From positions 72,542,001-72,606,000 of the forward strand of contig NC_086097.1 in the NCBI RefSeq assembly GCF_963921235.1: a DNA stretch of 64,000 nucleotides. Direction: 5' to 3'. Source of the stretch: Mobula hypostoma (lineage: Eukaryota). Below, piece by piece: positions 5,758-54,900 of the stretch (positions are counted from its first letter, which is position 1; every line of letters begins with the position of its first letter). The notes beneath the pieces were generated by a model. That model was not told the DNA's origin and did no database searches. It was given only the letters and a program-made list of their open reading frames with translations. Both the position numbers and the translations under genes were made by a program.

Positions 5758-7129
5758 AACTCCTGCCTGAGAAGCAACTTGGATCTGCTCCAATTTGCCT
5801 ACCATCACAAAAAGGTCAACAGTAGATGCCATTTCATTGGCTCTTCACTCAACACTGGAACACCTGGACAGTAAAAATGCAGACATCAGGATGCTCTTCA
5901 TTGACTACAGCTCGACATTCTATACTATCATCCACTCAAAACTAATCAATAAACTCCAAGACATTGGCCTCAATATCTCCTTGTGCAATTTTCTCACTTG
6001 CAGACCATAGCCAGTTTGGATTCGCAACAACATCTCCATAGTCTCCATCAGCATAAGTGCACCCCAAGGATGTATGCTTAGCCCCTGCTCTACTTGCTTT
6101 ATACAGTACTTATGTCAGTGCGGCTGAACACAGTTCCAATGCCATATTTAAGTTTGCTGGTGACTCCACTGCCATTAGCCAAATCAAGTGTGGTGACAAC
6201 TCAGCATATAGGAGGGAGATTGAAAATATGGCTGAGTGGAGCCACAACAATAATAATACCAATGAGCTGAATATTGACATCAGGAAGAGGAAACTGGAGG
6301 TCCATGAGCCAGTCCTCATTAGGGAATCAGAGGTGGAGAAGGTCAGCAATTCTAAATTTCTCAGTGTCAACATTTCAGAGGATCTATCCTGGTCCCAGCA
6401 CGTAAGTGCCATTACAACGAAAGCACAGCAGTGCTGCTACTTAAGGTTTTGCAAAGATTCAGCATGTCATCTAAAACTTTGACAAACTTCTTTGGAGGTA
6501 TGGTGGAGAGTATATTGACTGGTTGCATCACGACTTGCCATGGAAAAACCAATGCCCTTGAATGGAAGAGCCGACAAACCTATTAGATATGATTGCCCAA
6601 TCCATCACAGGTAAAGCCCTCCCCACCGTTGAGCTCATCTACAAGGATCACTGTCACAGGAAAGCAGCATCCATCATCAAAAACCCCTCCCATCCAGGCC
6701 TTTCCTTCCTCTCACTGGTGCCATCAGGAAGGAGGTACAGGAACCCCGGGACTCACACCACCAGGTTCAGGAACAGTTATTATCCCTCAACCATCAGGCT
6801 CTTGAACCAGAGGGGATAACTTCACTCAACTTCACTTACCCCTTCACTGAACCGTTCTCACAACCTATGAACTCACTTTCAAGGACTCTTCATCTCATAT
6901 TCTCAAAATTTATTGCTTATTTATTTATTTATTTATTTGTTTGTTTGTTTGTTTGTTATTTTGTATTTTGCACATTGGTTGTTTGTCCTTTTGGGTGTGG
7001 TCTTTCAATGGTTCTATGTGTTTCATGGATTTACAATGAATGCCCACAACAAAATGAATCTCAGGTTTAAATAAGCTGACATACAATATATGTACCTTGA
7101 CAGGAAATTTGTTTTCAACTTTGAACTTA

Positions 7130-8179: not shown

Positions 8180-8894
8180 AAATGCAAAAAAAGAGGGGGA
8201 ATAACACAAATAAATAAATAGACGATAAATATCAAGGACATGAGATTGTAGAATCCTTCAAAGTGAGTCCATAGATTGTGGAATCAGTTCAGTGTTAGGG
8301 TGAGTGAAGTTATCCCCTCTGGTTCAAGAGTCTGTTTGTTGAGGGGTAATAACTGTTCCTGAACCTGCTGGTGTGGGACCTGAGGCCCATATACCAACTT
8401 CCTGATGGCACCAGTGAGAAGAATGCATGGCCTAGATGATGGGGCTCTTTGATCATAGATACAGCTTTCCTGCGACAGCACTCCTTGTAGATGTATTCAA
8501 TGGTGGGGAGGGCCTTACCCATGATGGACTTCTTGTAGACCTTTCCCTTCGAGGGCATTGGTGTTTCCATTCCAAGCCACGATGCAAAGAGTCAGTGTAC
8601 TCGCATCTATAGAAGTTTGTCAAGGCAAACCTCTAAGAATGTAGAGGTGCTGCGGTGTCTTCTTTGTAACTGCACTTGTGTACTGGACCCAGGACAGGTC
8701 CTCTGAAATGACAACACTGAAGAATTTGAAGTTGCTGACTCCCTCCACCTCTGATCCCCCAATGAAGACTAGCTCATGGACCTCTGGTTTCCTCCTCCAG
8801 CAGTCAATAATCAGCTCCCTGGTTTAGCTGAAACTGAGTGTGAGGTTGTTGTTGTGACACCACTCAGTCAGATTTTCAGTCTCCCTCCTACATG
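8180..8894 (-). mobile_element. Rex1-like LINE 3' fragment
   Basis: KALPTIEYIYKECCRRKAVSMIKEPHHLGHAFFSLVPSG..HTSRFRNSYYPSTNRLLNQRG; inverted homologue of about 6200-6900. Confidence 0.8.
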
Positions 8895-8908
8895 CTAATT
8901 CATCAACA

Positions 8909-9202
8909 TCAAACTTGCTGGTGAACGCAGCAGGCCAGGCAGCATCTCTAGGAAGAGGTACAGTTGACGTTTCAGGCGGAGACCCTTCGTCAGGACTAAC
9001 TGAAAGAAGAGCGAGTAAGAGATTTGAAAGTGGGAGGGGGAGGGGGAGATCCAAAATGATAGGAGAAGACAGGAGGGGAAGGGATGGAGCCAAGAGCTGG
9101 ACCTCTTCATAGAGATGCTGCCTGGCCTGCTGCGTTCACCAGCAACTGTTATGTGTGTTGCTTGAATTTCCAGCATCTGCAGATTTCCTCGTGTTTGCGT
9201 TT
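8909..9202. mobile_element. PLE 3'-end insertion with partial inversion and 14-bp TSD
   Basis: CTAATTCATCAACA at 8895-8908 and 9203-9216; 8909-9101 is antisense and 9102-9202 sense of the same terminal sequence as 10471-10870; hammerhead-like motif on the - strand at 8961-8998. Confidence 0.8.
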
Positions 9203-10160
9203 CTAATTCATCAACAGCTTCTTTTCTATGGTTAAGCTTACATATCTGACACATTTCTAGCACCAGACATGCATGAAATGTAATTATTACTCTTGTAAAT
9301 TTCCTTTTGGAGATGATATCAAGTTCACCCAGTAATGCTGGTTACTCAGGAACCTGGGACTTAAATTTTCAAGACTGACCAAATCTGCCTCAACGTAAGG
9401 GGAAGCCAGCCCTCTATTCATTTCAAACCCGCACTCGTGTAGCTGCTCTGTCCAAATCATTTGATCACACCCCAGGCCCCAAAGTCATTACCTGTATATT
9501 GGGTAACTGAAACTCTGATCTAAGCCACTCAGACTTGGTGTTGAATCAGAGACCACATTCATTTCATTAGATATTTTCAAACTGAAGACTGGAGAATGTA
9601 AGTGTTTTTTCAAAACTTGATTAACATCATATTTAATGGCTTTATTGATTATTATCAGATCTGATGTATTTTAAATCGCACATTATTTTTATTCAATAAT
9701 TTACAACTAATTAATTATTTTCAATTTCAAAAACTCATTCTTCTTGTTTTCTTCTGGAAGGGAATGGCACATAAGCATTGCTCCCTTCTGAAATCTGCAG
9801 CCTCTAGTCTTGACGTGATGCAGAGAGTGTAATCTGATCTTAAGTTTGTTTTCATGTGCAGTCTGGTGACCTTCTGAAAACTGCTTGTGTTAGTCATTGA
9901 TCAATCCATATCACTTCCCATCTGTCATTTAATGGAGAATTAATGTTTTCAATCTGAAGACTCCCCCGAGCCCCTTCCATAGCAGTAGTTCGGTGTCCTT
10001 GTTAAAGCAAGCCCCTAGAGAACAGTAACAGCAGAATAGGAAACAGTAAGATGTAAAATATGAACCAAACCATTGGTAAAAGACACTTTGGATATAAAGC
10101 AACATACATCAAAGTTGCTGGTGAACGCAGCAGGCCAGGCAGCATCTATAGGAAGAAGCG

Positions 10161-10198
10161 CAGTCGACGTTTCAGGCCGAGACCCTTCGTCAGGACTA
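10161..10198 (-). ncRNA. Minimal type-I hammerhead ribozyme motif (mirror copy)
   Basis: Reverse complement UAGUC-CUGACGA-AGGGUCUCGGCCU-GAAA-CGUC-GACUG, identical to the + strand copy at 10736. Confidence 0.75.
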
Positions 10199-10735
10199 AC
10201 TGAAGGAAGAGTGAGTAAGGGATTTGAAAGCTGGAGGGGGAGGGGGAGATGCAAAATGATAGGAGAAGACAGGAGGGGGAGGGATAGAGCCAAGAGCTGG
10301 ACAGGTGATAGGCAGAAGGGGGTACGAGAGGATCATGGGACAGGAGGTCCGGGAAGAAAGACGGGGGGGGGGTGACCCAGAGGATGGGCAAGAGGTATAT
10401 TCAGAGGGACAGAGGGAGAAAAAGGAGAGTGAGAGAAAGAATGTGTGCATTAAAAAGAGTAACAGATGGGGTTACTCTTTTTAATGCACACATTCTTTCT
10501 CTCACTCTCCTTTTTCTCCCTCTGTCCCTCTGAATATACCTCTTGCCCATCCTCTGGGTCACCCCCCCCCCGTCTTTCTTCCCGGACCTCCTGTCCCATG
10601 ATCCTCTCGTACCCCCTTCTGCCTATCACCTGTCCAGCTCTTGGCTCTATCCCTCCCCCTCCTGTCTTCTCCTATCATTTTGCATCTCCCCCTCCCCCTC
10701 CAGCTTTCAAATCCCTTACTCACTCTTCCTTCAGT

Positions 10736-10773
10736 TAGTCCTGACGAAGGGTCTCGGCCTGAAACGTCGACTG
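10736..10773 (+). ncRNA. Minimal type-I hammerhead ribozyme motif (PLE type)
   Basis: Stem I AGUC/GACU, core CUGACGA (10741-10747), short stem II, GAAA (10761-10764), palindromic ACGU mini stem III and GUC triplet; predicted cleavage after 10768. Confidence 0.8.
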
Positions 10774-11160
10774 CGCTTCTTCCTATAGATGCTGCCTGGC
10801 CTGCTGCGTTCACCAGCAACTTTGATGTATGTTGCTTGAATTTCCAGCATCTGCAGAATTCCTGTTGTTTGGATATAAAGCATGTACTTTTTTTTGGAAC
10901 AACAACATAGATTATTTTTCCAGTTAATCTGAATTTTCTAACTGTAATCAATGACCAATACTCAAGAAAAACTTCAAAACCATAAATAAGTAGATAATTT
11001 GAACAGAAATATTTCATATGGAGGCTGATGACAATAAATAATTATTTACCAGGAACAGATATTTAGTTGAAATTATTAAGAAATGTTGAGACTTATGATG
11101 TATGTTGGGTTAACATTAGTTAGAGATAAAAAGTTATTGCTAAAATTCTTATTTGGTTTA

Positions 11161-11420
11161 GGGGCAGTATGGTAGCATGATGGTTAGCACAATGCTTTAC
11201 AGAACCAGTGACCCAGGTTCAATTTCCACCACTGACTCATAAGCAGCTGGTACATTCTCCTTGTGACTGCATGGGATTCCTCCCATATTCTGAAGACATA
11301 CTGGTTAGTAGGTTAATTGGTCATTGTAAATTGTCCGATGATTAGGCCAGGGTTAAATCGTGGGTTGCTGGGCAGTGCTGCTCGAAGGGCCTATTCCTCA
11401 CTGTATTTCAATAAATAAAC
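11161..11420 (+). mobile_element. tRNA-derived SINE (V-SINE/HE1-like)
   Basis: A-box-like TAGCATGATGG, B-box-like GGTTCAATTTCC, shared central and 3' blocks, and an AATAAATAAA tail. Confidence 0.8.
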
Positions 11421-12237
11421 AGACAAGTAAATAAAAATCTTAACTGGAGAGTTTTAAAATGCAAGGCATTTCCAACATGCAGGTACTGAAAGTCAACTAG
11501 GGATCAGTTGTTTAAGTCATTCAGTGTCCTATTTTAAAATCACTATGATGTAAAATGAATTAGTCAGTATCTTGACTCTGGTGCATTATTAATTTATTTG
11601 AAGCTCCATTCTGACCTATCGTATGTCAAAATGACTGAAAACTTAAAATTTGCTCTCATGGTAATTCTGTTGAATTGCAGTGCCAACACTCATGGTAATT
11701 GTAGAAAATCAAAACCTGACTGTTACATGAAAATATTTATAGCACCCAGCCTGACTTTTTTTCAAGGCAAGTTGAAGCAAATTTGTGATTTGGTCATGCT
11801 GGTCAAGTCTGCTTTCATTTTAATGTAGTTACTATATGTGTAATGATTTTATGTTTTGGTGCAACTTTTCACTATTTTTGTGGCTCACAATGCCATGCTT
11901 TCTATTGAAATTTGGAATTGGTGGCACTTGAATGATTGATTGAATGAGTGATTGAATGCAATTGTCTCTTGTAAGTGAAAATTAGTGAGTCATCACAGCA
12001 TGGCACATTTTAATCATTTTGTAAGGTCTAAGGAGAACCTCAAATAACCAAAATCATCATCATCTACTCTATCTTACATATTATTGTCCACATTCTACAT
12101 GTTACTTTGCTATAACCTAAGAATCCTTGGAGGCATATATTGCATTACTTCAGGCAGTTCTGTTACATCCTCGTTGTCCGTATTATAAAGCCATTTGAGT
12201 GACCTTAAAGAGAAAACTTGAAGTTATTCTCAGTAAC

Positions 12238-12366
12238 ACAAGCACAGGAAAATCTGCAGATGCTGGACAGGTCCTGGTGAAAGGTCTCAGCCTGAAATGT
12301 CGACTGTTTATTTCTTTCCATAGATGCTGCCTGACCTGCTGAGTTCCTCCAGCATTTTCCATGTGC
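12238..12366. mobile_element. Short rearranged PLE terminal fragment with 13-bp TSD
   Basis: TATTCTCAGTAAC at 12225-12237 and 12367-12379; the inverted extreme terminus (GGAAAATCTGCAGATGCTGGA) is joined to a sense degenerate hammerhead (CTGGTGA..GAAATGTCGAC, 12271-12306). Confidence 0.75.
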
Positions 12367-13399
12367 TATTCTCAGTAACTACAGTTTGCAAACCTGAGGC
12401 TGCAAGTGTTAGTTTTAGACTCCAGCATAGAAGAACTGAGGGCAATATATGGAGATCTTTGAGTATAAGCCTTGAAACTATCAAGGGGAATTTTGCAAGA
12501 TGGCATTTCAAACACAATCTGGCTACGTGGCAATATTAGCATTTATGATAAAGCATTTGAGAATTTTAGTTTTTATGTAGAATGAAAGAGAATATTTTTT
12601 CATTCAAACAACTTTATTAAAATTAAAACAAGAACCAGATTTTGGCATCTAGAACAACCTTGGAGCAATGCACAAGACAAATGATATTCTATTCAGGAAG
12701 GTGATAGAGAGATTGCAGAATCACTTTAATCGAGCTTCCTCAGAGTTCATAGAGAGTACAAGTGTAAGCCAAAAGGCAACAAGCAGTCATTACATAGACT
12801 GAAGAATCTCTTTCAATGCTATAATTATGGTCTTTCCTGACTTGGGCAGTGCTGACATTTGTGACCAATTTTACAATAAAGGAAATAAAATTAAAAATGT
12901 TAAAGCAATGTCTAACTTTTGAGTGTGCATGTTAGATATACACATTGATGGATTTAGTGTCAAAAATGTGTAAGAAGTTTGGTTGATGTATAATATCAAT
13001 ATAAATGCTGTTTGAGACAAATACCAGTAGCAAAGGTGATAGCTACAATATTGTCATTGTCACAGGAGTGAAACTGGTGTGAAAGCAAAGACTGACACTG
13101 GAAGTTGCTATGGGTGTAGTGGTGATAACTTGTAATGAGTGTGGCAGTATAAGGCAATGTGAAGGTTCAGCTGTAAAAGCAAAGGACATAACCTGTGTGT
13201 AAGAGCTGAAATTCACAATAATATCAGCCAAGTAGGTGAAGGTAACACTAATAACAGAAAGCCTCATGGGAGCAGTTTGTACAGTACTGAAGGTGATGAG
13301 TGACGTGCGGAGCAAAGTCTAACCAGCATGTACCCAGCTAGCAGCAGCATTGGAATCTGCTGGAATTTTAAAATTAAAGTAAAAATTAATGATCTTTAG

Positions 13400-16954: not shown

Positions 16955-17121
16955 GTACAACAGAGCGGGTATGTCTGATCCAGGGAACAGTGGAAGCTCT
17001 GAATGCAGTTCACAGCTTCATTGCAGAGAAAATCCGAGAAATGCCTCAGAATGTGGCAAAGACAGAACCAGTTAGTATTCTACAGCCTCAGACCACAGTA
17101 AATCCAGATCGCATCAAACAA
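16955..17121 (+). CDS. NOVA1: NOVA1 coding exon (167 nt; C-terminal part of KH1 plus linker; equivalent to mammalian exon 3)
   Basis: (G)[55 protein letters not shown] matches NOVA1 as recalled; acceptor tctctgcag at 16954 (phase 1) and donor CAA/gtaagt at 17122 (phase 0). Confidence 0.97.
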
Positions 17122-19265
17122 GTAAGTTACCAATAATGTTTATTATTAGAATATTGTTTGAATTTGTATTAGCATACACAGATAGTGGTGGAAGGAAGAG
17201 GATGCTGACAAATCTACTCCTTACATAGCGAGTAAAACAATGCTAACTTTAAATGCAAGTCTTTTCAATCAAAAAGCGACTAAATTGAGATTGAGGTTAT
17301 CAGAAATTTAACTTTAAACCTATTTGTCTACAACCTATTTTGATGAGGTGATCAATTAATCATTCACTCAGGTAGCCCCTTCCATCTTCCCAAGCCCATG
17401 TTCATTATTTATGCGTAACTATAATTAATTTAGTTCAAGAAATGGAAGAAAGTTAGATATTGCTACCTTGTGCACAATTCTCTTGCTGATTGTCCTCAAT
17501 TTAACCCTTGATCTCTACGAGTGCATAAATTTCCATAGGTTTATTAATTGTGTTGATGAAACATATTGTTAAAGGAAGACTGTCTGCAATGGTTTTGTGT
17601 AAATAAATAGCAAATGGAAACACTTTTGAGCTGAGAAAAAGAAATACATTCTGATAGTTTACACTTATCTACTTTTCTAGTCAGTGACAATTGTGCAAAA
17701 TTACTACCTTTTCATATAAATCGGTTGTGCACTTCTTAGCATCATATTAGAAGATGAGTTTATCATAATTTTCTTCCTGTCCCTGTGAATTGAACCAACT
17801 ATTTTTCCAATTATGTCATTGTTACTTAATACAGTACAGTTTCAGATGCAATCATTCCTTTTGAAAATGATTACTATCTGAAATATTTTGTTCTATGCTG
17901 CAGTATCATTCATTTATGGTCTAGAATGTGCTACCGTGAGAATTCCCTTTGCAGCCTTTGACATCACTCATTATTCTGTAAAAGCTCTGTGCAATGTTAA
18001 AAAAAAACTGGCATTTGTAACACGATTATTTAAAACAAAAACATGTCAAGCAGTGTGCATATACGAGGAAAATTAGCAAAAAGTATACATTTTTTCAGTC
18101 TTCCATAATATATTGCATATCAAAGGCAACATTTTTGGGATCATGCTATTATTTGTTTTAAATAGGTACAAAATCACTGATAATTCATTAATAATCTTGA
18201 TTCAATTACTCTTCCTGTTGACTATGAAAAATCAGTGTGAAATCTTAGGCGCAAATCTTGAATATTACCAATTTACTGTAATGTGATTTGCTCCCATTCA
18301 GCCTCCATGAGAGGCAATTGCAAGAATTTAAAATCAAAATAATGAAGATTGTTTTTGAGATGAAGGTATTCACATCTGAGTTTTTGTCATGTTCAGCCAT
18401 TTGACGGGAACAAGAGACAATCCAAGTAAAACATCATTTATGGTTTCACATACATTGAAAATATAGATGTTCTGGCCACAGCAACCCAACAGGCCCACAA
18501 TGCACATGAAAAAGAAACAAGATGATTTCCAGAGGGAGGAATTAAATAATTTGCTGTGAATACTTAAGAGAATACAGTTGCTTTTGTAATGTGCAGGGCC
18601 TCTTCTGATGTCTCATGACTTCCTTCCCAGAGAAAACTGGAGGAGCCATGTTAGGTTGTATCCATATTGATTACCAACGCTGCTGGGAAGTTTGATTACA
18701 AACATGTACCCACATGTTAGCTTTAATGTTTGGGATCCCTATAAGTGGCTTTATTGTAATCTTGATCTAACAGTGGTTTGTACAAAAACATTCATATACT
18801 GTGAAGCAACTCTACTTTTCTGCCAGTTTGCATTCTAACAGCAGTGCTGAAAGCTTCACCTTCAATTTCTAGAAACTGAGAATTCAATGCTAACACTAGA
18901 TCTTGCCAAAGAAGGGGGCGAAGAATTTGACTTAAGTCATGTGTATTGTTCGAACAATTAACTATACTTTCACTGCTCTTTCAAAGTTCAGATTCATTAA
19001 AATTAATGGATTGCAATTTATTAATTGGAGCTCAGTTGTATTTAGTACAAGGGACCAAAAGCAAATTTATCCCTCATAATTATTTGTAGAAAATGTGTAA
19101 TCATTCAACTACTATGTAACTACAACTCCCTAAGCATTAAGATCCCATCCATTAAACCTGCCATAAGAGGCAATTCCACACAGTAAATTACATTTCTATA
19201 GAATATTGAACATAGAATAGTACAGCACAGTACAGGTCCTTCGGCCCACAATGTTGTGCCGACCC

Positions 19266-22175
19266 TCAAACCCTGCCTCCCATATAAGCCCTCACCTTAA
19301 ATTCCTCCATATACCTGTCTAGTAGTCTCTTAAACTTCACTAGTGTATCTGCCTCCACCACTGACTCAGGCAGTGCATTCCACGCACCAACCACTCTCTG
19401 AGTGAAAGACCTTCCTCTAATATCCCCCTTGAACTTCCCACCCCTTACCTTAAAGCCATGTCCTCTTGTATTGAGCAGTGGTGCCCTGGGGAAGAGGCGC
19501 TTGCTATCCACTCTATCTATTCCTCTTATTATCTTGTACACCTCTATCATGTCTCCTCTCATCCTCCTTCTCTCCAAAGAGTAAAACCCTAGCTCCCTTA
19601 ATCTCTGATCATAATGCATACTTTCTAAACCAGGCAGCATCCTGGCAAATCTCCTCTGTACCCTTTCCAATGCTTCCACATCCTTTCTATAGTGAGGTGA
19701 CCAGAACTGGACACAGTACTCCAAGTGTGGCCTAACCAGAGTTTTATAGAGCTGCATCATTACATCGCAACTCTTAAACTCTATCCCTTGACTTATGAAA
19801 GCTAACACCCCATAAGCTTTCTTAACTACCCTATCCACCTGTGAGGAAACTTTCAGGGATCTGTAGACATGTACCCCGAGATCCCTCTGCTCCTCCACAC
19901 TACCAAGTATCCTGCCATTTGCTTTGTACTCTGCCTTGGAGTTTGTCTTTCCAAAGTGTACCACCTCACACTTCTCTGGGTTGAACTCCACCTGCCACTT
20001 CTCAGCCCACTTCTGCATCCTATCAATGTCTCTCTGCAATCTTTGACAATCCTCTACACTATCTACAACACCACCAACCTTTGTGTCATCTGCAAACTTG
20101 CCAACCCACCCTTCTACCCTCACATCCAGGTCATTGATAAAAGTCACGAAAAGTAGAGGTTCCAGAACAGATCCTTGTGGGACACCACTAGTCACAATCC
20201 TCCAATCTGAATGTACTCCCTCCACAACCACCCTCTGCCTTCTGCAGGCAAGCCAATTCTGAATCCACCTGGCCAAACTTCCCTGGATCCCATGCCTTCT
20301 AACTTTCTGAATAAGCCTACTGTGTGGAACCTTGTCAAATGCCTTAATAAAATCCATATAGATCACATCCACTGCACTACCCTCATCTATATGCCTGGTC
20401 ACCTCCTCAAAGACTGCCCTTCACAAAGCCATGCTGACTGTCCCTGATCAGACCATGATTGTCTAAATGCCTATAGATCCTATCTCTAAGAATCTTTTCC
20501 AACAGCTTTGCCACCACGGACGTAAGGCTCACTGGTCTATAATTACCCAGATTATCCCTACTACCTTTTTTGAACAAGGGGACAACATTCGCCTCCCTCC
20601 AAGCCTCCGGTACCATTCGCGTGGACAACGAGGACATAAAGATCTTAGCCAGAGGCTCAGCAATCTCTTCTCTCGCCTCGTGGAGCAGCCTGGGGAATAT
20701 CCTGTCAGGCCCCAGGGACTTATCTGTCCTAATGTATTTTAACAACTCCAACACCTCCTCTCCCTTAATATCAACATGCTCCAGAACATAACCTCACTCA
20801 TATTGTCCTCACCGTCATCAAGTTCCCTCTCATTGGTGAATGCCGAAGTGAAGTATTCATTGAGGACCTCGCTCACTTCCACAGCCTCCAGGCACATCTT
20901 CCCACCTTTATCTCTAATCGGTCCTACCTTCACTCCTGTCATCCTTTTTTTCTTCACATAATTGAAGAATGCTTTGGGGTTTTCCTTTACCCTACTCGAC
21001 AATGCCTTCTCATGCTCCCTTCTTGCTCTTCTCAGCCCCTTCTTAAGCTCCTTTCTTGCTTCCCTATATTCCTCAATAGACCCATCTGATCCTTGCTTCC
21101 TAAACCTCATGTATGCTGCCTTCTTCCACCTGACTAGATCTTCCACCTCACTTGTCACCCATGGTTCCTTCACCCGACCATTCTTTATCTTCCTCACCAG
21201 GACAAATTTATCCCTAACATCCCGCAAGAGATCTCTAAACATCGACCACATGTCCATAGTACATTTCCCTGCAAAAACATCATCCCAATTCACACCCGCA
21301 AGATCTAGCCTTATAGCCTCATAATTTGCCTTTCCCCAATTAAAAATTTTCCTGTCCTCTCTGATTCTATCCCTTTCCATGATAATGCTAAAGGCCAGGG
21401 AGCAGTGGTCACTGTCCCCCAGATGCTCACCCACTGAGAGATCTGTGACATGACCCGGTTCATTAGCTAGTAGTAGATCTAGTATGGCATTCCCCCTGGT
21501 CGGCCTGTCCACATACTGTGACAGGAATCCGTCCTGGACACACTTAACAAACTCTGCCCCATCTAAACCCTTGGAACTAATCAGGTGCAAATCAATATTA
21601 GGGAAGTTAAAGTCACCCATGATAACAACCCTGTTATTTTTGCACCTTTCCAAAATCTGCCTCCCAATCTGCTCCTCTGTATCTCTGCTGCTACCAGGGG
21701 ACCTATAGAATACCCCCAATAGAGTAACTGCTCCCTTCCTGTTCCTGACTTCCACCCATATTGACTCAAAAGAGGATCCTGCTACATTACCCACCCTTTC
21801 TGTAGCTGTAATAGTATCCCTAACCAGTAATACCACCCCTCCTCCCCTTTTTCCGCCCTCTGTATCCCTTTTAAAGCACTGAAATCCAGGAATATTGAGA
21901 ATCCATTCCTGCCCTGGTGCCAGCCAAGTCTCTGTAATGGCCTCCACATCATAATTCCATGTATGTATCCAAGCTCTCAGTTCATCACCTTTGTTCCTGA
22001 TGCTTCTTGCATTGAGGTACACACATTTCAGCCCTTCTACCTTACTGTCTTTACACCATTTATTCTGCTTCTCTTTCCTCAAAGCCTCTCTGTATGCTAT
22101 ATCTGGCTTTACTCCATGCACTTCTTTCACTGCTGTATCACTCTGGGTCCCATCCCCCTCGCAAATTAGTTTAAA
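19266..22175 (-). pseudogene. CR1 ORF2 broken by two frameshifts
   Basis: Compared with the intact copy at 52109-55054, a 1-bp deletion near 20790 and an approximately 26-bp deletion near 20413 split ORF2 into the 463, 115 and 378 aa ORFs. Confidence 0.9.
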
Positions 22176-23090
22176 CCCTCCCGAACCATGCTAGCAAACC
22201 TACCTGCAAGGGTATTGCTCCCCCTCGAGTTCAGGTGCAACCCATCCAATCTGTACAGGTCCCACCTTCCCCAGAAGAGATCCCAATGATCTAAAAATCT
22301 AAAACCCTGCTCCTTGCACCAACTCCTCAGCCACGCATTCAACTGCCATCTCCTCTAATTCTTACCATCCCTGTCACGTAGCACTGGCAGCAATCCTGAG
22401 AACACCACCCTTGAGGTCCTGTTCTTCAGCCTTCTGCCTAGTTCCCGAAACTCACAATTCAGGACCTCATCCCTCTTCCTGCCTATGTCATTGGTCCCAC
22501 GTATCACGACTTCTGGTTGCTTTCCCTCTCATACCAGGATGTCGTGCACCCGGACCCTGGCACCCAGGAGGCAACAAACCATGCGGGTGGCCTTCTCATG
22601 TCCACAAAATCTCCTGTCTGCTCTCCTGACTATAGAGTCTCCAATGACGACAGCTCTCCTCTTCTCCGTCCCACCCTTCCGCACCACAGGGTTAGACTCA
22701 GTGCTGGAGGCCCTGCCACTGTGGCTCACACCTGGTCGGTCGTCCTCGCCAACAATATCCAGGATGGTAAACTTATTATTCAGGGGAATGGCTACATGGG
22801 TGCTCTGTACTACCTGTCTGCTCACCTTCACTTCCCCCCTCTGACTGTCACCCAGCGACCTGCTTCCAACAGCTTAGGTGTGACTATCTCCCTGTGGCTC
22901 TCATCTATGACTGCCTCATTCTCCCTTATGAGTCAAAGGTCATCCAGCTGCTGCTCCAGATTCCTTACACGGTCTTCCCGATCGCCCAGCCGTATGCACT
23001 TCTGGCAGATGTGACTCTGCGGGAGAGGGAAGTTCCCCCAAGACTGCCACATCTCACATGAGAGGCACATCGCCATCTCAAGAGACATTG
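22166..23090 (-). pseudogene. CR1 ORF1 (zinc finger/coiled coil plus SGNH esterase), disrupted
   Basis: MSLEMAMCLSCEMW..HICQKC..LEQQLDDL then an in-frame stop; RRAVVIGDSIVRRADRRFCG; ends ..HWDLFWGRWDLYRLDGLHLN..GLN*. Confidence 0.8.
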
Positions 23091-30200: not shown

Positions 30201-32267
30201 GCTTCATTTCATTTATCCACTCGTACTGAAGGGTAATGGCTGAGTGCTTTGGCAGCAACATGATTTATTGCTCCAAGATTAGGTTTAAACTCCCACTTGT
30301 TAAAAATAAATTACAGTTGCAAAGATTAAACTACTGTGATCTTTGAATATCTACTTAATGCACCTGGGATCTTCAACTTCAGTGTTACTGCACCTTATGT
30401 GCAGAACCCAATCAATTTATGAAATCGCTTTGAGACAGTAATTGATTTTCCATAGTGCCTAACTTGACTAAGACCATGAACACATAAACATTCTGTTAAC
30501 TTTAATTTGCTTATTAATCCCTACTGTTTTAAAACATATTCTGCATCTGGACATGTTTGATTTTTGTGTCATCAGGTGACCATTTCTACATAAAATTTTC
30601 AGTATTGTTACTCTAAAATTATTTTTATTTGAGCTGCTGCCAAGCAACTTGTATTCACTGAATATTCAGCTATACTACTGAAGTGAACATTTTCACATCT
30701 TCCCTCAACACAATACCAGATTCACTTTACCTTGCATTCTAATGTTGGATATCTGCATGCTATTTATCTTGGTGGCATCTTAACTCTCAACCAGAGTTTG
30801 GGAATTAGAGCCCCAAACTTAATGAGCCTTCCCTGTAACAGAGCATCTCATATTTATATTTAGACTCCTGGTCATTCACATTCTCCACTCACTAGAGGGA
30901 AATATTGCTTTTCCCATTCTAATTGATGTATTTTCACAATGCTTCCACCCCAATACCCATCCCAACCCAAAACATTCCTGCATCCAACATCTGGGGATGC
31001 AGCTCGTGCTTACTTTTGTAGAGGTTCAATATGAGCAGACACTTTCTGAGCCTCCTGCTTCATAATGAAGGATAGGATCAGACAAGAAAAAATTCTACCA
31101 TTTTCAAACAGGACTATTAGGATAAGGTCAGATTCCTAGGGGTGGGCTGAGATTGTATTCATTTGAAGAAACTCGAAGTTAAGCTATTTGTGTCTGATTA
31201 TTAAAGAAGCTAGGTCTGGTTCTGTGCACTATTTTATACTAGTAATGCTCTTCTGAGAGCAAAGGGCTTTATTTTTCCTATGTGGGGCACAGAGGCCTCC
31301 CTCACCATTGTCACAAGGAAACAGAGGGGTTCTTAAAACCAGGAATGTAGACTTTCCAGTGAGGATAAATCATCAACTTCTATCCTAATGAAATTATATT
31401 TTAATCTCTTAACCTTCAGAGAAAGAAAGCCCTTCCTACTCTGTCTCCCTTCATAGAACGAAGTTCTCATTTAAAGGAAAAAGTCTGGTGAAACATATGA
31501 TCTTTCAGGGATGAATATTGTTGTTTTTGTAAGGAGATTTATACTCTATAATGTTCCCTGTGTGTGCTTTCACTAAACCCTAACTAAATTACCTGTGACA
31601 ACCCCACCCCCTACATAGCCCACATCCTACCCCTTTAGCATGCAGTCTTGCATATGGTTTAGGATCACAGTGGCCTTGTAAGCTTTCTTTGATTCATTTA
31701 TAAAGCTACGTAAATTACTCCACATGCCATCATTCATAAAGTCATACAGCAGAGAAATGAGCTGCTCAGCCCACCAAGTCTGCACAGACCATCAAACACC
31801 TATTTACATAAAGCTCATCTGTTTAAAATTCAATCCAATTTCCCATCAACTCCTCCCAGATTATACTTCTCACCCACACACTAGAAGCATTTTGTTTTAA
31901 ATGTGGCCAGTTAACCTATCACCCTGCAGATCTGTGGAGTGTGAGAGGAAATTGAAGTATCTGGAGAAGCATATGCTGTCATGCAACATGGAAACAGGCC
32001 TTCAGCTTGCTGAGTCAGCATCATCATCAGGGACCTATTGACACTAAATTTACTTATCGCCACATTCCCAGCAACTTGCCCAGGTGATGTTACTCATCTG
32101 CACACTAGGAGCAAATTATAGAAGTCAAGTAACCTGTCTGCCAGCATATCCTTGGGATATGAGAGGAAACCAGAGCACCTAGAGGAAACCTACACGATCA
32201 CAGGGAAAACATGAAAACTTCTGGGCCTAAAGTTCCAATATCTGTTGCTGTAAAAGAGCACTACAGA

Positions 32268-32550
32268 AGTGTAGTGGTTAGCATGGTGCTATTACAGCTG
32301 AGTGTCGGAGCTTCGGAGCTTAATTCCGGCAGTCTCTGCAGGGAGTTTGCATGTTCTCCCCATGATCACCTGGGTTTCCTCAAGCTGCTCCGGTTTCCTC
32401 CCACCGTCCAAAGGTGTACTGGTTAGTAGTTTAATTGGTCATTGTAAATTGTCCCGTAATTAGGCTAGGGTTAAATAGGTGAGTTGCTGGGTGGTGTGGC
32501 TCATTGGGCTGGAAAGGCCTGTTCTGTGTTGTATCTCTACATAAACATAA
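32268..32550 (+). mobile_element. tRNA-derived SINE (V-SINE/HE1-like); older antisense SINE-like remnants precede it at about 31740-32210
   Basis: GTAGTGGTTAGC head, GGGAGTTTGCATGTTCTCCCC..GGGTTTCCTC..CTCCGGTTTCCTCCCAC domain and the shared 3' block. Confidence 0.8.
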
Positions 32551-32834
32551 TTAATTAAAAATCTTGCTGTAGAAACATTTCCTTGATGCTTTGTGGAGAG
32601 CACACAACCTACTTGTACTTGTTTAGGTGATGAGAAATTTTCAGTCAATAGGTAGGAGAAAGCAGCCTAGATTAGGAATACATAGAGCAATATCATATTC
32701 TTGCCAAATCAGACTTCCCCAAACTGGTGCTCTTACCTTAGCACATCTCATTCACTGTATCACCCCTCATTCACTGTATCACCCCTAACGCCCTTTCCAA
32801 ATTCATGCTATCCATCAATCCATTGTAACATGGG

Positions 32835-38062: not shown

Positions 38063-38597
38063 TTCCAGTTTCCAGTTTTAGTGGAAGCTGTGACATCAGC
38101 CCTAAAATTGCAAAATCACGGTGGAATTTGTGTGTCTGAATGGAACTGACCACTATTTAACTACTGGGAACCCTATGCAACAAGTTGATGATAGATTCCT
38201 GTATGCTCTTTGATATTGGTCAACTTCCCAAAGCTCCACATACTTCTTATTGTTTTTCTTTTGGATGTGCCTTGCTACTTGATCAAACTTCCATATTATT
38301 TTTTTCTCTCCCTGCTTTAACCAAAAGCTACACATAGTCAGTCTCTCTCCAAAGTAAATCACATCTCTGTACTAATTCTGAGGAATTTCAGTACTAGAGC
38401 TGATGCTGGCTGCAAGAGTGAAATAAAGCTATTCCCTTACTTGTACAGCCTAACTAGGCTACATTCTTGGGTATTTGAAATGAAAGGGACACAGGGGTCT
38501 GCCTTGCCTCCTGATTACTAGCTGCTTTGCCTGGTTGTGCATCACTTTCTCCCACAGAAGGAAATGTTTTAGTGAGTATCAAGCATTGTGTTTGAGT

Positions 38598-38735
38598 AAC
38601 ACACGAAATGCTGGAGGAACTTAGCAGGTCAGGCAGCATCTCTGGAAATGGATAAACAGTTGATGTTTCGAGCCAAACCCCTTCATTAGGACTCACTGTA
38701 TCTGTGTGTTTTTCAGCATCTGCAGTTTTCAAAAC
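38598..38735 (-). mobile_element. PLE terminal fragment with degenerate hammerhead (38657-38693)
   Basis: Reverse complement AGTC-CTAATGA-AGGGGTTTGGCTC-GAAA-CATC-AACTG followed by the shared GATGCTGCCTGACCTGCT..TTCCTCCAGCA block; a short sense CAGCATCTGCAG terminus follows. Confidence 0.75.
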
Positions 38736-39154: not shown

Positions 39155-39635
39155 AGGGGCAAAAGTCTGTAGATATTGAAAATCTGAACCAGAGACAGAA
39201 AATGTTAGAAGGGATCAAAGGTATTTGTGTGAGGGAAGAAGAGTCAATGTTTCAAATCAAAGATCCTGCATAGAAGTTGAAAAGTGGAAAAAAAACAAGT
39301 GGGGTGAAAGGAGAGGACAGGGGCAGTGTCTATGATGGGACGTTGACCAAGGTTTTCAGATTAAAAGTGATCTTGCAAACAGAGATGGAAGAAAAATGAA
39401 ACAAATTGTAACAGAAAGGTATAGCCACATCTGAGGACAGAGGTCGCGTGAAAAGGCACCCCCTCAATCTCACATTGGCCATTTCTAAAGAAATAAAGGA
39501 ATCTAACTACAGAGTCACTGCAATAGTCAGAGCAGGAGTGAAATGGCAAATTAATGTACCAGGTGATCGGAAGCTTCAGGTTACTCCGGCAGATAAAGCA
39601 GGTGTGTAATACAAAGGGATCACCCAATCTAAATT
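39155..39635 (-). mobile_element. Old PLE 3' part with GIY-YIG endonuclease C-terminal remnant
   Basis: RLGDPFVLHTCFICRSNLKLPITWYINLPFHSCSD resembles the PLE GIY-YIG C-terminal pattern R.EH.......PVA.HFN...HS; it is followed by a pyrimidine-rich UTR and a decayed terminal block. Confidence 0.55.
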
Positions 39636-39719
39636 AATTGGTGTATTATTATCACACGTACCAAGATGCAGTCCAGATCCAAATGTTCTAGAGATGAGTG
39701 TAGGACCATAGAGATGGTT

Positions 39720-39856
39720 TCCTCCAGTCCTGATGAAGGGTCTCGGCCCAAAATGTCGACCTACTCTTTTCCATAGATGCTGCCTGGCCTACTGAGTTCC
39801 TCCAGCATTTTGTTTGTGTTGCTTGGATTTCCAGTATCTGCAGATTTACTCTTGTT
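39720..39856 (+). mobile_element. PLE terminal fragment with near-intact hammerhead (39726-39760)
   Basis: AGTC-CTGATGA-A-GGGTCTCGGCCC-AAAA-TGTC-GAC (GAAA to AAAA and CG to TG, consistent with CpG decay) plus the shared 3' terminus. Confidence 0.8.
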
Positions 39857-48745: not shown

Positions 48746-49364
48746 AAGTTTGACAGATAGCAACATTAGCAACACAGTTTAGTTGTCTTTTGAAGGTTGC
48801 CTGAGGAGTAACAATGTGGGGGCTTGATTCTAATTTGTCCATGTCACTCAGTTACTTTGGTTGAAATTATTTTGCTACTCAGGGCCTCAATGTGGGGTTT
48901 CAAGACAGTCTAGATCAGCAAGATTAGTCTTCCAGATTACCCTTCTTTAAATGGTACCATGGGATTTTTCATGTCCATATCTGACAGAGCCTGAGTTTAC
49001 CATCCCTTCCAAATGATAGCACCTCTAATGTAAAAACACATGCCATTTTTGTGCATGTTAGATTGTACTGATCATTACATCCTAGAGATATTGGGCTGAT
49101 GCATCCTTGTGGAGTTCACCTTAGTATGTCACACAATTTGTTCTCAGATTTTCAGAGAGAATAAAGGATCAAATGTCACAGCAGATCAAAAAAGGATCTA
49201 ATGGGTCCCTATTGTCCAATTGATAAACTGCTCTCTGCATCTGCCATTGTCACTATTTATTGTTCAGCATATTTCAATCAGCACGGTATTACTTCTTGCA
49301 TTCTTTTTGTATTTGGACTGCAGTTTTTCACACTACCCTGAATCCAAGGTTCATAATGATGTAG

Positions 49365-49781
49365 GGTCTAATCTTTATATATGATCACACCTGCGATCTA
49401 ATCTTTATATATGATCACACCTGCGATCTAATCTTTATATATGATCACACCTGAGATCTAATCTTTATATATGATCGCACCTGGAATCTAATCTTTATAT
49501 GTGATCGCACCTGGGATCTAATCTTTCTATGTGATCGCACCTGGGATCTAATCTTTATATGTGATCGCACCTGGGGTCTAATCTTTATATGTGATCGCAC
49601 CCGGGGTCTAATCTTTATATGTGACCGCACCTGGGATCTAATCTTTATACGTGATCACACCTGGGATCTAATCTTTATACGTGATCACACCTGGGATCTA
49701 ATCTTTATACGTGACCACACCTGGGATCTAATCTTTATACGTGATCACACCTGGGATCTAATCTTTATATGTGACAACACC
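49365..49781. repeat. 30-bp minisatellite, about 14 copies (GATCTAATCTTTATATGTGATCRCACCTGG)
   Basis: CTAATCTTT recurs every 30 bp from 49368 to 49758. Confidence 0.97.
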
Positions 49782-51190
49782 GAGAGATGCACAACCTGAC
49801 TCACTGCACATATGCACCCTCTCCCTTTGCCCACACAATCCCTCAGCACAGCAGTAGGTATTCTGCAGCTATTCTGTGGCTGCCATGGAGACGAGCTCTT
49901 TAAGCACCTGACTTGCCTCCATGCTTCATTGTGCAATGAAATGGCAGCTACAATCTCTAACAGCAGCTGCTGTTGGAAACCACACTGGTGTAGTTTTACC
50001 ATATGATTCAGTGAGTAAAACAGCCATGTGTTTATTTCTTTCTGTCTTTTTTTTCTTTCTTCCTTTCTTTTTGCAGCACAGTAATAAACCCTTCTGGCCT
50101 GATGAGCTCATGCCGCATTTTCATCTGGATTTTGTTTCCAATTATGCAAAGCTCTGCTTTGTGTACTGATAAAGGATGAACTCCAATTTCTGGGCCACTC
50201 TTCTTTATGCTATGCAATGAAGAACATACACAGTAAAAACTGTTTTTACTGCGGTTGTATTCTTATTGCTAAGTAATGCTTGCTGATGTGTGTTTCCTTT
50301 TTTGAAAGAAATGAACACTTTTTTAACTAGTCACCAAAAATTTCTATCTATCAACAACACAAATAAACTACTCCAGTCAGTGAAGTCACTATAAAGCAAA
50401 TAACTTACTGAATCTAATTTATTGTAATTCTGGACAATGTTAATGTTGTGCACAATGGCACAGACAGTATTGGTAGCAGAAATTCCTTTAACAGTAGATC
50501 ATTAACAATTTATATATATATATTTGAGTACTGGCATTATTTTCACAGGTTTATTCTAGCTTTATCAGCAGACTCTTATAGTAGCATTTAAGTTGCATTT
50601 TAAAATTAAATCCTAATTGTTGGAATAAGCAGCTGGATTAGGAATTTTGAGCAATCAGGCGATGAAACCCTCTTTTAAATGTAACAATCAGAAATTTAGT
50701 AATAATTTCAGTTTGGTTTGAAAGTACAACATTTGCCCAACAATGTTAATGTTACACAAGAGACTCTTCCTATCTTTTTTCGTCTCACCCTATCAATATC
50801 TTCCCCTGTTCATTATTCTCTCAGGTACTTCATGAGCTTCCCTTTTTAATTGCTTCTACACCATTTACCTCAAACCACATTGTGTGGTAGCAAGTATTCT
50901 TACGACTGTTAGACTCTTATCATTTTATAATGACAGTCAAGTAATTCCAGTTCCCTGTATATTCAATAAAAAATCTAAATCAGCTTACACGAAGCCGCAA
51001 ATATTTACACAATACGGGGTATAATTCTGTTACATTCCAGGAAGTTTTTAGTTTTTTGTGATAGTAGTCACCTTTGTGAATATAAACATACCTATTTTAT
51101 CATTGTTGAAAGGAAATCCACTGAGATTTTTGTTTCTATTTTTATTCCTTCAAGGGATGTGGATTTCTCAGGCTAAGCCAACATTTAATT

Positions 51191-51291
51191 CTTGAAGAAG
51201 GGTTTTGGCCTGAAATGTTGACTGTTTACTCTTTTCCATAGATGATACCTGGCCTGCTGAGTTCCTCCAGCATCTTATGTGTGTTGCTCAT
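51191..51291 (+). mobile_element. PLE terminal fragment with degenerate hammerhead and 9-bp TSD
   Basis: CATTTAATT at 51182-51190 and 51292-51300; TTGAAGA-A-GGGTTTTGGCCT-GAAA-TGTT-GACTG plus the shared terminus. Confidence 0.75.
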
Positions 51292-51992
51292 CATTTAATT
51301 GCCTGTCCCTAATTACTCTTGGGAAGGTAGTGACAAGCTACCTCATGAATAGCTGTAGTCCTTGAGGTGTTGGTGTACCCACCATGCTGTTAGGGAAGGA
51401 GGTCCAGGATTGCGACCCAATGATGGTGAAGGAACAATGATATAGTTCCAAAATTAGGATGGTGTTTGGTTTGGAGGGTGTCTTCCATAAGGTGGTATTT
51501 CCATGCCTTTGCTAACCTGTCCGTTTAGCTGGTGGAAGCTGTAGGTTTAGAAAGTGCTTTCCAATGAGTCTTGATGAATCGCTGTTTCTGTGTGTTGGTA
51601 GTGGAGTGACTGAAATGTTGTGCATGGGCTGTGTATCCAGTGGGTTCTGTGCCCTGTATGAGCTTCTTGAGTGTTGTTGAAGTGCCATTCATCCTGGCTA
51701 GTGGAGAGCATTGAGCCTTGTAAGATGGTGGACATACTTTGGGGAGTCAGGGAGTGAGATACCCACCACAGAATTTTTACCTTCTGTTCTGCTCTTGTTG
51801 ACACACTGCGGATATGAGTACTTCAATTCAGTTTCTGTCAAAGGTAATCACTAAGATATTGATAGTGGGGGATTCAGTGATGGTAGTGCTATTGATTGTC
51901 ATGGGGTGCTAGATAGATTTTCTGAATATCACCACCTGAGGAGTCATGAATGGTGTTGAACGTTGAGCAGTCATCAGTAAACATGCCTATTT

Positions 51993-54900
51993 TAGATTTT
52001 AGATCATTGGCATCTCTTCTGCGGAAGGTGGGACCTGTACAGATTGGATGGGTTGCACCTGAACTCGAGAGGGAGCAATATCCTTGCAGGTAGGTTTGCT
52101 AGCATGGTTTGGGAGGGTTTAAACTAATTTGCGAGAGGGATGGGACCCAGAGCGATAGAGCAGTGAAAGAAGTGCATGGAGTAAAGGCAGATCTAACATA
52201 CAGAGAGGCTTTGAGGAAAGAGAAGCAGAATAAATGGTGTAAAGACAGTAAGGCAGAAGGGCTGAAATGTGTGTACCTCAATGCAAGAAGCATCAGGAAC
52301 AAAGGTGATGAACTGAGAGCTTGGATACATACATGGAATTATGATGTGGAGGCCATTACAGAGACTTGGCTGGCACCAGGGCAGGAATGGATTCTCAATA
52401 TTCCTGGATTTCAGTGCTTTAAAAGGGATAGAGAGGGAGGAAAAAGGGGAGGAGGGGTGGCATTACTGGTCAGGGATACTATTACAGCTACAGAAAGGGT
52501 GGGTAATGTAGCAGGATCCTCTTTTGAGTCAATATGGGTGGAAGTCAGGAACTGGAAGGGAGCAGTTACTCCACTGGGGGTATTCTATAGGCCCCCTGGT
52601 AGCAGCAAAGATACAGAGGAGCAGATTGGGAGGCAGATTTTGGAAAGGTGCAAAAATAACAGGGTTGTTATCATGGGTGACTTTAACTTCCCTAATATTG
52701 ATTGGCACCTGATTAGTTCCAAGGGTTTAGATGGGGCAGAATTTGTTAAGTGTGTCCAGGATGGATTCCTGTCACAGTATGTGGACAGGCCGACCAGGGG
52801 GACTGCCATACTAGATCTAGTACTAGGTAATGAACTGGGTCAGGTCACAGATCTCTCAGTGGGTGAGCATCTGGGGGACAGTGATCACCGCTCCCTGGCC
52901 TTTATAATTATCTTGGAAAAGGATAGAATCAAAGAGGACAGGAAAATTTTTAATTGGGGAAAGGCAAATTATGAGGCTATAAGGCTAGAACTTGCGGGTG
53001 TGAATTGGGATGATGTTTTTGCAGGGAAATGTACTATGGACATGTGGTCGATGTTTAGAGATCTCTTGCGGGATGTAAGGGATAAATTTGTCCCGGTGAG
53101 GAAGATAAAGAATGGTAGGGTGAAGGAACCATGGGTGACAAGTGAGGTGGAAAATTTAGTCAGGAGGAAGAAGGCAGCATACATGTGGTTTAGGAAGCAA
53201 GGATCCGATGGGTCTACTGAGGAATATAGGGAAGCAAGAAAGGAGCTTAAGAAGGAGCTGAGAAGAGCAAGAAGGGGGCATGAGAAGGCCTTGGCGAGTA
53301 GGGTAAAGGAAAACCCCAAGGCATTCTTCAATTATGTGAAGAAAAAAAGGATGACAGGAGTGAAGGTAGGACCGATTAGAGATAAAGGTGGGAAGATGTG
53401 CCTGGAGGCTGTGGAAGTGAGCGAGGTCCTCAATGAATATTTCTCTTCGGTATTCATCAATGAGAGGGAACTTGATGATGGTGAGGACAATATGAGTGAG
53501 GTTGATGTTCTGGAGCATGTTGATATTAAGGGAGAGGAGGTGTTGAAGTTGTTAAAATACATTAGGACAGATAAGTCCCTGGGGCCTGACGGAATATTCC
53601 CCCGGCTGCTCCATGAGGCGAGAGAAGAGATTGCTGAGCCTCTGGCTAGGATCTTTATGTCCTCGTTGTCCACGGGAATGGTACCGGAGGATTGGAGGGA
53701 GGCGAATGTTGTTCCCTTGTTCAAAAAAGGTAGTAGGGATAGTCTGGGTAATTATAGACCAGTGAGCCTTACGTCTGTGGTGGCAAAGCTGTTGGAAAAG
53801 ATTCTTAGAGATAGGATCTATAGGCATTTGGAGAATCATGGTCTGATCAGGGACAGTCAGCATGGCTTTGTGAAGGGTAGATCGTGTCTAACAAGCCTGA
53901 TAGAGTTCTTTGAGGAGGTGACCAGGCATATAGATGAGGGTAGTGCAGTGGATGTGATCTATATGGATTTTAGTAAGGCATTTGACAAGGTTCCACACAG
54001 TAGGCTTATTCAGAAAGTTAGAAGGCACGGGATCCAGGGAAGTTTGGCCAGGTGGATTCAGAATTGGCTTGCCTGCAGAAGGCAGAGGGTGGTGGTGGAG
54101 GGAGTACATTTAGATTGGAGGATTGTGACTAGTGGTGTCCTACAAGGATCTGTTCTGGGACCTCGACTTTTCGTGATTTTTATTAACGACCTGGATGTTG
54201 GGGTAGAAGGGTGGGTTGGCAAGTTTGCAGATGACACAAAGGTTGGTGGTGTTGTAGATAGTGTAGAGGATTGTCAAAGATTGCAGAGAGACATTGATAG
54301 GATGCAGAAGTGGGCTGAGAAGTGGCAGATGGAGTTCAACCCGGAGAAGTGTGAGGTGGTACACTTTGGAAGGACAAACTCCAAGGCAGAGTACAAAGTA
54401 AATGGCAGGATACTTGGTAGTGTGGAGGAGCAGAGGGATCTCGGGGTACATGTCCACAGATCCCTAAAAGTTGCCTCACAGGTGGATAGGGTAGTTAAGA
54501 AAGCTTATGGGGTGTTAGCTTTCATAAGTCGAGGGATAGAGTTTAAGAGTCGCGATGTAATGATGCAGCTGTATAAAACTCTGGTAAGGCCACACTTGGA
54601 GTATTGTGTCCAGTTCTGGTCACCTCACTATAGGAAGGATGTGGAAGCATTGGAAAGGGTACAGAGGAGATTTGCCAGGATGCTGCCTGGTTTAGAAAGT
54701 ATGCATTATGATCAGAGATTAAGGGAGCTAGGGCTTTACTCTTTGGAGAGAAGGAGGATGAGAGGAGACATGATAGAGGTGTACAAAATAATAAGAGGAA
54801 TAGATAGAGTGGATAGCCAGCGCCTCTTCCCCAGGGCACCACTGCTCAATACAAGAGGACATGGCTTTAAGGTAAGGGGTGGGAAGTTCAAGGGGGATAT

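Follow-up and report, generated by a model that had tools for sequence, protein, structure and literature searches.

A perfect palindrome in a NOVA1 intron of Mobula hypostoma is probably a young Penelope-like element insertion primed at both target ends

The window analysed here is a stretch of 64,000 nucleotides of Mobula hypostoma DNA (contig NC_086097.1, positions 72,542,001 to 72,606,000, forward strand). At 10087–10882 it carries a locus, c1, that is probably a single young 5′-truncated insertion of a Penelope-like element (PLE), target primed at both ends and without selected function. The palindrome at this locus is an ordinary kind of PLE insertion and not a device that protects NOVA1.

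The arms at 10097–10463 and 10471–10837 are exact reverse complements (367/367), a match whose chance origin is negligible (about 1e-214), and the 7-nt sequence between them, AGATGGG (10464–10470), forms the loop. Thus the perfect palindrome described in the sequence-only reading of this DNA, with 367-nt arms and a 7-nt loop, is borne out letter for letter. The 15-bp target-site duplication (TSD) proposed there is present as well, as a direct repeat that brackets c1 at 10087–10101 and 10868–10882. The left copy overlaps the left arm: its final 5 nt double as the opening 5 nt of that arm, so the inserted left arm measures 362 nt. Beyond the palindrome, the right arm alone carries a 30-nt element tail (10838–10867) that has no counterpart on the left, and the c1 insert is therefore 766 nt plus the duplication. 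The features of c1, in window coordinates, are as follows.

10087–10101, + strand: left target-site duplication of 15 nt, the final 5 of which are the start of the inverted arm (microhomology, tail-less start site); organism B contigs cease to fit at 10101
10097–10463, − strand: inverted tail-less arm, element antisense on the + strand
10166–10193, − strand: minimal hammerhead core, mirror copy, antisense to NOVA1
10464–10470, + strand: 7-nt loop, made up of element sequence in continuation of the tail-less arm; the fit of family contigs extends to 10472, and 10471–10472 are common to both arms
10471–10837, + strand: sense arm, pyrimidine-rich 3′ part of the element (pLTR-like), with no useful open reading frame
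10737–10772, + strand: minimal type-I hammerhead motif by our own descriptor, of a class described in part of PMC4209133
10838–10867, + strand: one-sided PLE "tail", 30 nt; family contigs show tail-like letters beyond 10097
10868–10882, + strand: right target-site duplication, 15 nt

By four of the five features considered, c1 qualifies as a PLE insertion whose terminal repeat is inverted; the fifth is a parent element that encodes a telomerase-like RT plus a GIY-YIG endonuclease. Passages of PMC8557442 and PMC3846280 name two features as typical of PLEs, a 5′-truncated copy placed in inverted orientation at the 5′ end and a tail of 30–40 nt on one side only, and hammerhead motifs of this minimal type are said in PMC4209133, in the part used here, to mark PLE terminal repeats. 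Four features of the EN+ type of PLE are found in c1: a head-to-head, inverted 5′-truncated copy; a 30-nt tail on one arm only, at the same offset as in the sibling copies c2, c3, c4 and c6; a 15-nt TSD together with an empty site, the latter deduced from organism B contigs; and a hammerhead motif (own descriptor) in the terminal repeat. No RT or GIY-YIG open reading frame is linked to c1, and the three frames of 10471–10867 show nothing recognisable. Therefore the assignment to PLEs rests on structure and on the hammerhead.

The likeness to published EN+ PLE insertions with an inverted pLTR (PMC3846280; PMC8557442, both as far as they are drawn on here) extends to the head-to-head arms, the TSD, one arm shorter by a 30–40-nt tail, heavy 5′ truncation and a palindrome at the inverted junction. 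However, c1 is without an open reading frame, and its arms are nearly co-extensive and still identical. The TSDs of 13–15 nt in c1, c2 and c3 are also longer than the 8–10 nt cited for rotifer PLEs in the same partial sources.

Other classes of element do not fit. A non-LTR retrozyme is rejected since the arms are inverted, not head-to-tail, and the repeats listed for the window include no tandem unit of the family; the portion of the retrozyme preprint 10.64898/2026.07.22.740005 used for comparison holds nothing on inverted copies. A MITE or DNA-transposon foldback is rejected because the 30-nt tail separates the right arm from the TSD and the copies are 5′-truncated to varied lengths. A miRNA precursor is improbable; the miRNA models matched in Rfam score a generic hairpin, and every match falls below its gathering threshold. 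A scan for a 22-nt family pattern gave no loci in viral contigs, none in metagenome contigs and one in prokaryote genomes. This single prokaryote match was dropped, as the bacterial contig matches by chance and over those 22 nt only.

Seven family loci are found in the window, of which four (c1–c4) have two arms, two (c5 and c6) have a single arm, and c7 is too decayed to class. The six loci other than c1 are listed below.

8895–9216 (c2): 14-nt TSD; 197-nt inverted tail-less arm (92% to c1), tail-bearing arm of ~100 nt, 2-nt junction overlap
12225–12379 (c3): 13-nt TSD; inverted tail-only arm at 12244–12267, sense tail-less arm at 12271–12364
38595–38730 (c4): inverted tail-less arm followed by a short sense tail; a TSD was searched for and none found
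39719–39854, + strand (c5): one tail-bearing arm; an inverted arm and a TSD were searched for and none found
51182–51300, + strand (c6): one tail-less arm; TSD of 9 nt exact, or 12 nt with one mismatch
39163–39254, − strand (c7): probable copy, very decayed, weak match

A TSD is present in four of the six family loci examined (c1–c6), the search in c4 and c5 having found none. The tail-less arms end about 30–39 nt from the distal end in five copies (c1, c2, c3, c4 and c6).

Four of the 24 sequencing runs listed were compared with the stretch around the palindrome: X3, which may be the source sample, X7 and X8, which are from one sample of organism B, and X9, from organism C. Six runs presumed to be RNA contain 0.04–0.11 of the sequence words and were left out of the comparison. 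In run X3, 77,712 contigs match the 1.27-kb stretch around the palindrome with nearly all of the depth on the arm, about 6 on the flank versus millions on the arm, a figure that is summed contig depth and not copy number. The PLE family of c1 is very abundant and high-copy. Opposite-strand joints inside the arm also occur in other copies of organisms A and B (2 of 15 among the rows listed). In run X9, 79 organism C contigs detach at 10197, just upstream of the hammerhead in the sense of the element, which suggests either that the hammerhead-to-tail module is all that subfamilies have in common or that many copies begin there. As a separate observation, c2, c1 and c3 are three hammerhead-element insertions of the same family within 3.5 kb (8895–12379), and the inverted arm of c2, at 92% identity, could pair with the sense arm of c1 in pre-mRNA.

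The sequence-only reading favoured a real, recent insertion over an assembly fold-back, and this view is upheld by the TSD, the one-sided tail, the siblings of the same layout and the apparent empty site in a relative. That the palindrome is an assembly or library fold-back artefact is very unlikely. The perfect identity of the arms would fit such an origin, as would the loop being uncrossed by any contig among those listed, with X3 perhaps being the source sample itself. However, a fold-back artefact would not produce a 15-nt TSD, a tail on one side and a return to unique flank, and older sibling copies share the layout of c1. In addition, one X3 contig spans 9230–10122 with 0 differences and so enters the inverted arm from the flank, running 21 nt beyond the TSD, where the bridging rule of the tool is 31 letters. 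Past the loop, at 10477–10500, the X3 depth is 91, and it is 0 in X7, X8 and X9. None of the 32 X3 pieces listed crosses the loop, and the sequencing support for the loop is thus indirect; the right junction lies outside the compared stretch. The depth of 91 is about 14 times the flank depth of 6.4 and may represent summed contigs or the same fold-back junction elsewhere. The unbroken passage of the 9230–10122 contig across the TSD into the element is also a weak hint that the insertion is homozygous in that individual.

A close relative, organism B, appears to have an empty site at the c1 locus. The organism B contig shows 17 differences in 872 nt of flank (~2% divergent), its fit ends exactly at 10101, and it continues for 319 unmatched letters, runs X7 and X8 being in agreement. 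If these 319 letters are the right flank they end near 11201, a short way into a dispersed repeat whose start lies at or before 11181, and contigs are expected to break at such a place. The organism C flank contig (X9) stops at 10100 and thus has no bearing on the presence of c1. The apparent empty site in a close relative indicates that the c1 insertion is young. The arms also bear on the age: an insertion at the A/B split would predict about 7 arm differences and 0 of 362 are seen (P 0.0009), which gives a 95% bound on the age of c1 of about 0.4 of the time since that split, unless gene conversion keeps the arms alike.

The turn of the palindrome carries information on how the insertion formed. 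On the + strand, 39 X3 family contigs fit through 10472, i.e. the loop plus 2 nt, and then diverge; the loop is therefore template sequence that continues the left, tail-less arm. The left arm ends in 2 nt that are complementary to 10471–10472, and this GT/AC pairing at the turn fits either a fold-back or an end-to-end join. The sequence-only reading preferred cDNA snap-back priming over twin priming, and did not identify the arrangement as the standard one of PLEs. Part of this stands, as the loop and the 2-nt pairing are compatible with a fold-back as well as a join, but the loop polarity is opposite to that of a snap-back by the tail-bearing cDNA. A simple snap-back of tail-bearing, target-primed first-strand cDNA, with no second priming, would account for arms that cover the same sequence and share letters rare in the family (e.g. 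G at 10322, where ~99% of the X3 depth is A). It would leave the loop CCCATCT on the + strand, however, and the AGATGGG observed is continuous with the tail-less arm. Since the loop continues that arm, the tail-bearing cDNA did not simply snap back, and unless the 39 contigs at 10472 give a false picture of the source element, this explanation can be given almost no weight at all.

A fold-back of the tail-less cDNA alone cannot supply the tail, hence a second priming at the other target end is most likely. The most likely account is that both target ends primed reverse transcription and that the products were joined over 2 nt. In this account the nuclease of the element would make a 15-nt staggered cut. 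One 3′ target end would prime reverse transcription at the distal start site to give the tail-bearing arm, and the other 3′ end, aided by the 5-nt microhomology, would prime at an internal start site 30 nt upstream to give the tail-less arm. The tail-less cDNA would run for ~370 nt and be closed through the 2-nt GT/AC pairing. For this it would either meet the terminus of the second cDNA, halted 7–9 nt short of it, or fold on itself and afterwards anneal to a shorter tail-bearing cDNA. Fill-in would then produce the palindrome. Both closures, end-to-end join and local fold-back, are compatible with the data. A further assumption, either coupled synthesis or a local fold-back, is required for the two cDNAs of c1 to end no more than 9 nt apart.

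Priming at both ends from two sites that delimit the tail matches the behaviour reported for the protein of a lizard PLE: it cleaves each strand of the target, extends both, and initiates at a pair of RNA sites that mark off the tail (PMC11167929, in the part drawn on here). This element, PAc, a Poseidon PLE of the green anole, shares with c1 a hammerhead followed by two RT start sites within ~100 nt that delimit the tail, as well as an AT-rich target and extension on both target strands, according to the same portion of PMC11167929. PAc differs in that the RNA sites from which it starts lack homology with the cleaved DNA, whereas the tail-less end of c1 overlaps the TSD by 5 nt, and the main text of PMC11167929, in those sections, presents no model of the inverted product.

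A self-priming route is unlikely. In it, the 3′ end of an antisense transcript or free antisense cDNA would turn back through a 2-bp pairing and be elongated to give a hairpin with the tail included, which would integrate with the tail of the antisense arm trimmed away. The route has been put forward for PLE head-to-head palindromes (PMC3846280, in part), and it predicts both the loop polarity that is observed and identical arms. But the PLE protein in vitro primes from target DNA on both strands (PMC11167929, in part), the clustering of tail-less ends at 30–39 nt from the distal end in five copies argues against it, and the near-zero arm overlap in c3 and c4 is poorly explained by a fold-back. 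In these two copies the second arm is little more than tail, a non-overlapping layout of the kind that twin priming predicts.

Twin priming is known from L1 elements, where it was reportedly described by Ostertag and Kazazian in 2001. As in c1, both target ends are said to prime, with a 5′ inversion, short microhomology at the internal junction and a TSD. However, L1 arms are said to cover adjacent, non-overlapping stretches of RNA, and the arms of c1 and c2 overlap. An L1-type twin-priming inversion is rejected for c1 on this ground, the overlap being 367 nt in c1 and ~54 nt in c2. The family of c1 differs from L1 further in that the second start site is fixed at ~30 nt from the end.

The two-armed copies show a common polarity. 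In all four the tail-less arm extends further up the template (one-sided sign test 1/16), with a lead of 7–9 nt in c1, ~140 nt in c2 and ~100 nt in c3 and c4. With n = 4 this pattern is a lead only. It may be that both ends prime the same RNA and the tail-less cDNA always leads, the tail-bearing cDNA either stopping at the internal primer (c3, c4) or chasing by strand displacement (c2, c1); as a rule this is tentative and rather doubtful. The single-armed c5, with a tail-bearing arm alone, does not agree with a strict rule that both ends are always used. If the rule is true, the perfect palindrome is the end-point of a series in which the trailing enzyme has caught up, and the spacer of a PLE palindrome should nearly always come from the tail-less arm. 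No such rule was found in the literature searched, although earlier work on PLEs may already contain it.

A strict minimal-hammerhead descriptor applied to both strands of the window gave two matches, at 10741–10768 (+) and at its mirror 10193–10166 (−), so that the earlier statement that the palindrome holds the only intact sense-strand hammerhead is correct within the window under this descriptor. The motif consists of stem I, a CUGACGA core, a 3-bp stem II, GAAA and a palindromic 2-bp stem III, with the predicted cut after 10768. In Rfam no family reaches the gathering score; the 32 weak matches in 8800–12500 are mostly miRNA models scoring the hairpin and none of the 32 is a hammerhead. 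The c1 motif shares the core boxes, a short stem I and a palindromic minimal stem III with the min-HHRs of metazoan PLE pLTRs in the account given by part of PMC4209133, which also mentions motif pairs 100–700 bp apart on opposite strands. In comparison with those min-HHRs, stem II in c1 has just 3 canonical bp.

The sequence-only reading further suggested that the hairpin sequesters the hammerhead and so may protect the NOVA1 transcript. This part of the reading is not supported. The hammerhead does not form in the predicted monomer fold (z −0.76). Single minimal PLE hammerheads show no cleavage as monomers in the part of PMC4209133 used here, the comparable lizard PLE hammerhead requires its protein (PMC11167929, same sections as above), and the locus is apparently absent in a close relative. 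With no monomer fold predicted, and with relatives that are inactive or protein-dependent, there would be little to protect NOVA1 from.

A selected regulatory hairpin, which would either keep a harmful ribozyme silent or supply ADAR/Dicer with substrate and so tune NOVA1, has very little probability. In the predicted transcript fold a full 367-bp stem forms (−829 kcal/mol) that buries the hammerhead, the antisense arm comes first in NOVA1-sense transcription, and the sole intact sense hammerhead motif of the window lies within it, all of which would favour such a role. But c1 is young and a close relative apparently lacks it, the hairpin is the usual insertion product of its family, single minimal hammerheads are reported not to cleave (PMC4209133, in part), the nearest exon found is 6.1 kb away, and a far longer inverted LINE pair, 96% identical, lies in the same gene region. 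Being a young insertion with the usual layout of its family, c1 gives no sign of selection. It is thus presumably without selected function, and any dsRNA or cruciform would be a by-product.

The locus itself is minor, one young repeat copy deep in an intron. However, the formation of tandem and inverted PLE structures is still described as undefined in the relevant part of PMC8557442, and c1 is a useful specimen in that the insertion is unmutated, an empty site is apparent in a relative and the junctions are preserved. One simple model is excluded by its loop polarity, which also points to a rule that can be tested across an abundant family. As a candidate, c1 could further serve as a presence/absence marker, and it offers a natural test of how long a perfect 367-bp palindrome persists in the germline of a vertebrate. 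In humans, inverted Alu pairs at close spacing are depleted (PMC3215922, in part), which makes a later loss of the palindrome plausible.

The exon nearest to the palindrome among those found is a NOVA1 coding exon at 16955–17121 (+), 6.1 kb downstream, which encodes the end of the first KH domain (E-value = 2e-30 to PDB 2ann_A) and whose splice sites are readable. No exon was found upstream of the palindrome in the window; of 13 NOVA peptide motifs sought, one was matched. The site is presumably in intron 2, as numbered by the human gene structure that we take as the reference.

Several other repeats are present in this region. Downstream of the NOVA1 exon there is an inverted pair of LINEs, which we take to be of the CR1 type, at 19198–22296 and 51997–55122; the two are 96–97% identical over ~3.1 kb, lie 30 kb apart and have the potential to form dsRNA much longer than that of the palindrome. 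The copy at 52103–55054 (+) displays an uninterrupted 983-aa endonuclease/RT-like frame. Older LINE-like fragments form another inverted pair at 6258–6835 and 8294–8823, 78–82% complementary and 1.5–2.2 kb apart. The dispersed repeat at 11181–11441, which resembles a tRNA-derived SINE, has relatives at 683–892 and 32392–32565 with 70–75% identity. A tandem array with a 30-nt unit (~17 units) is found at 49304–49841, and a lone related unit is situated at 30360–30395.
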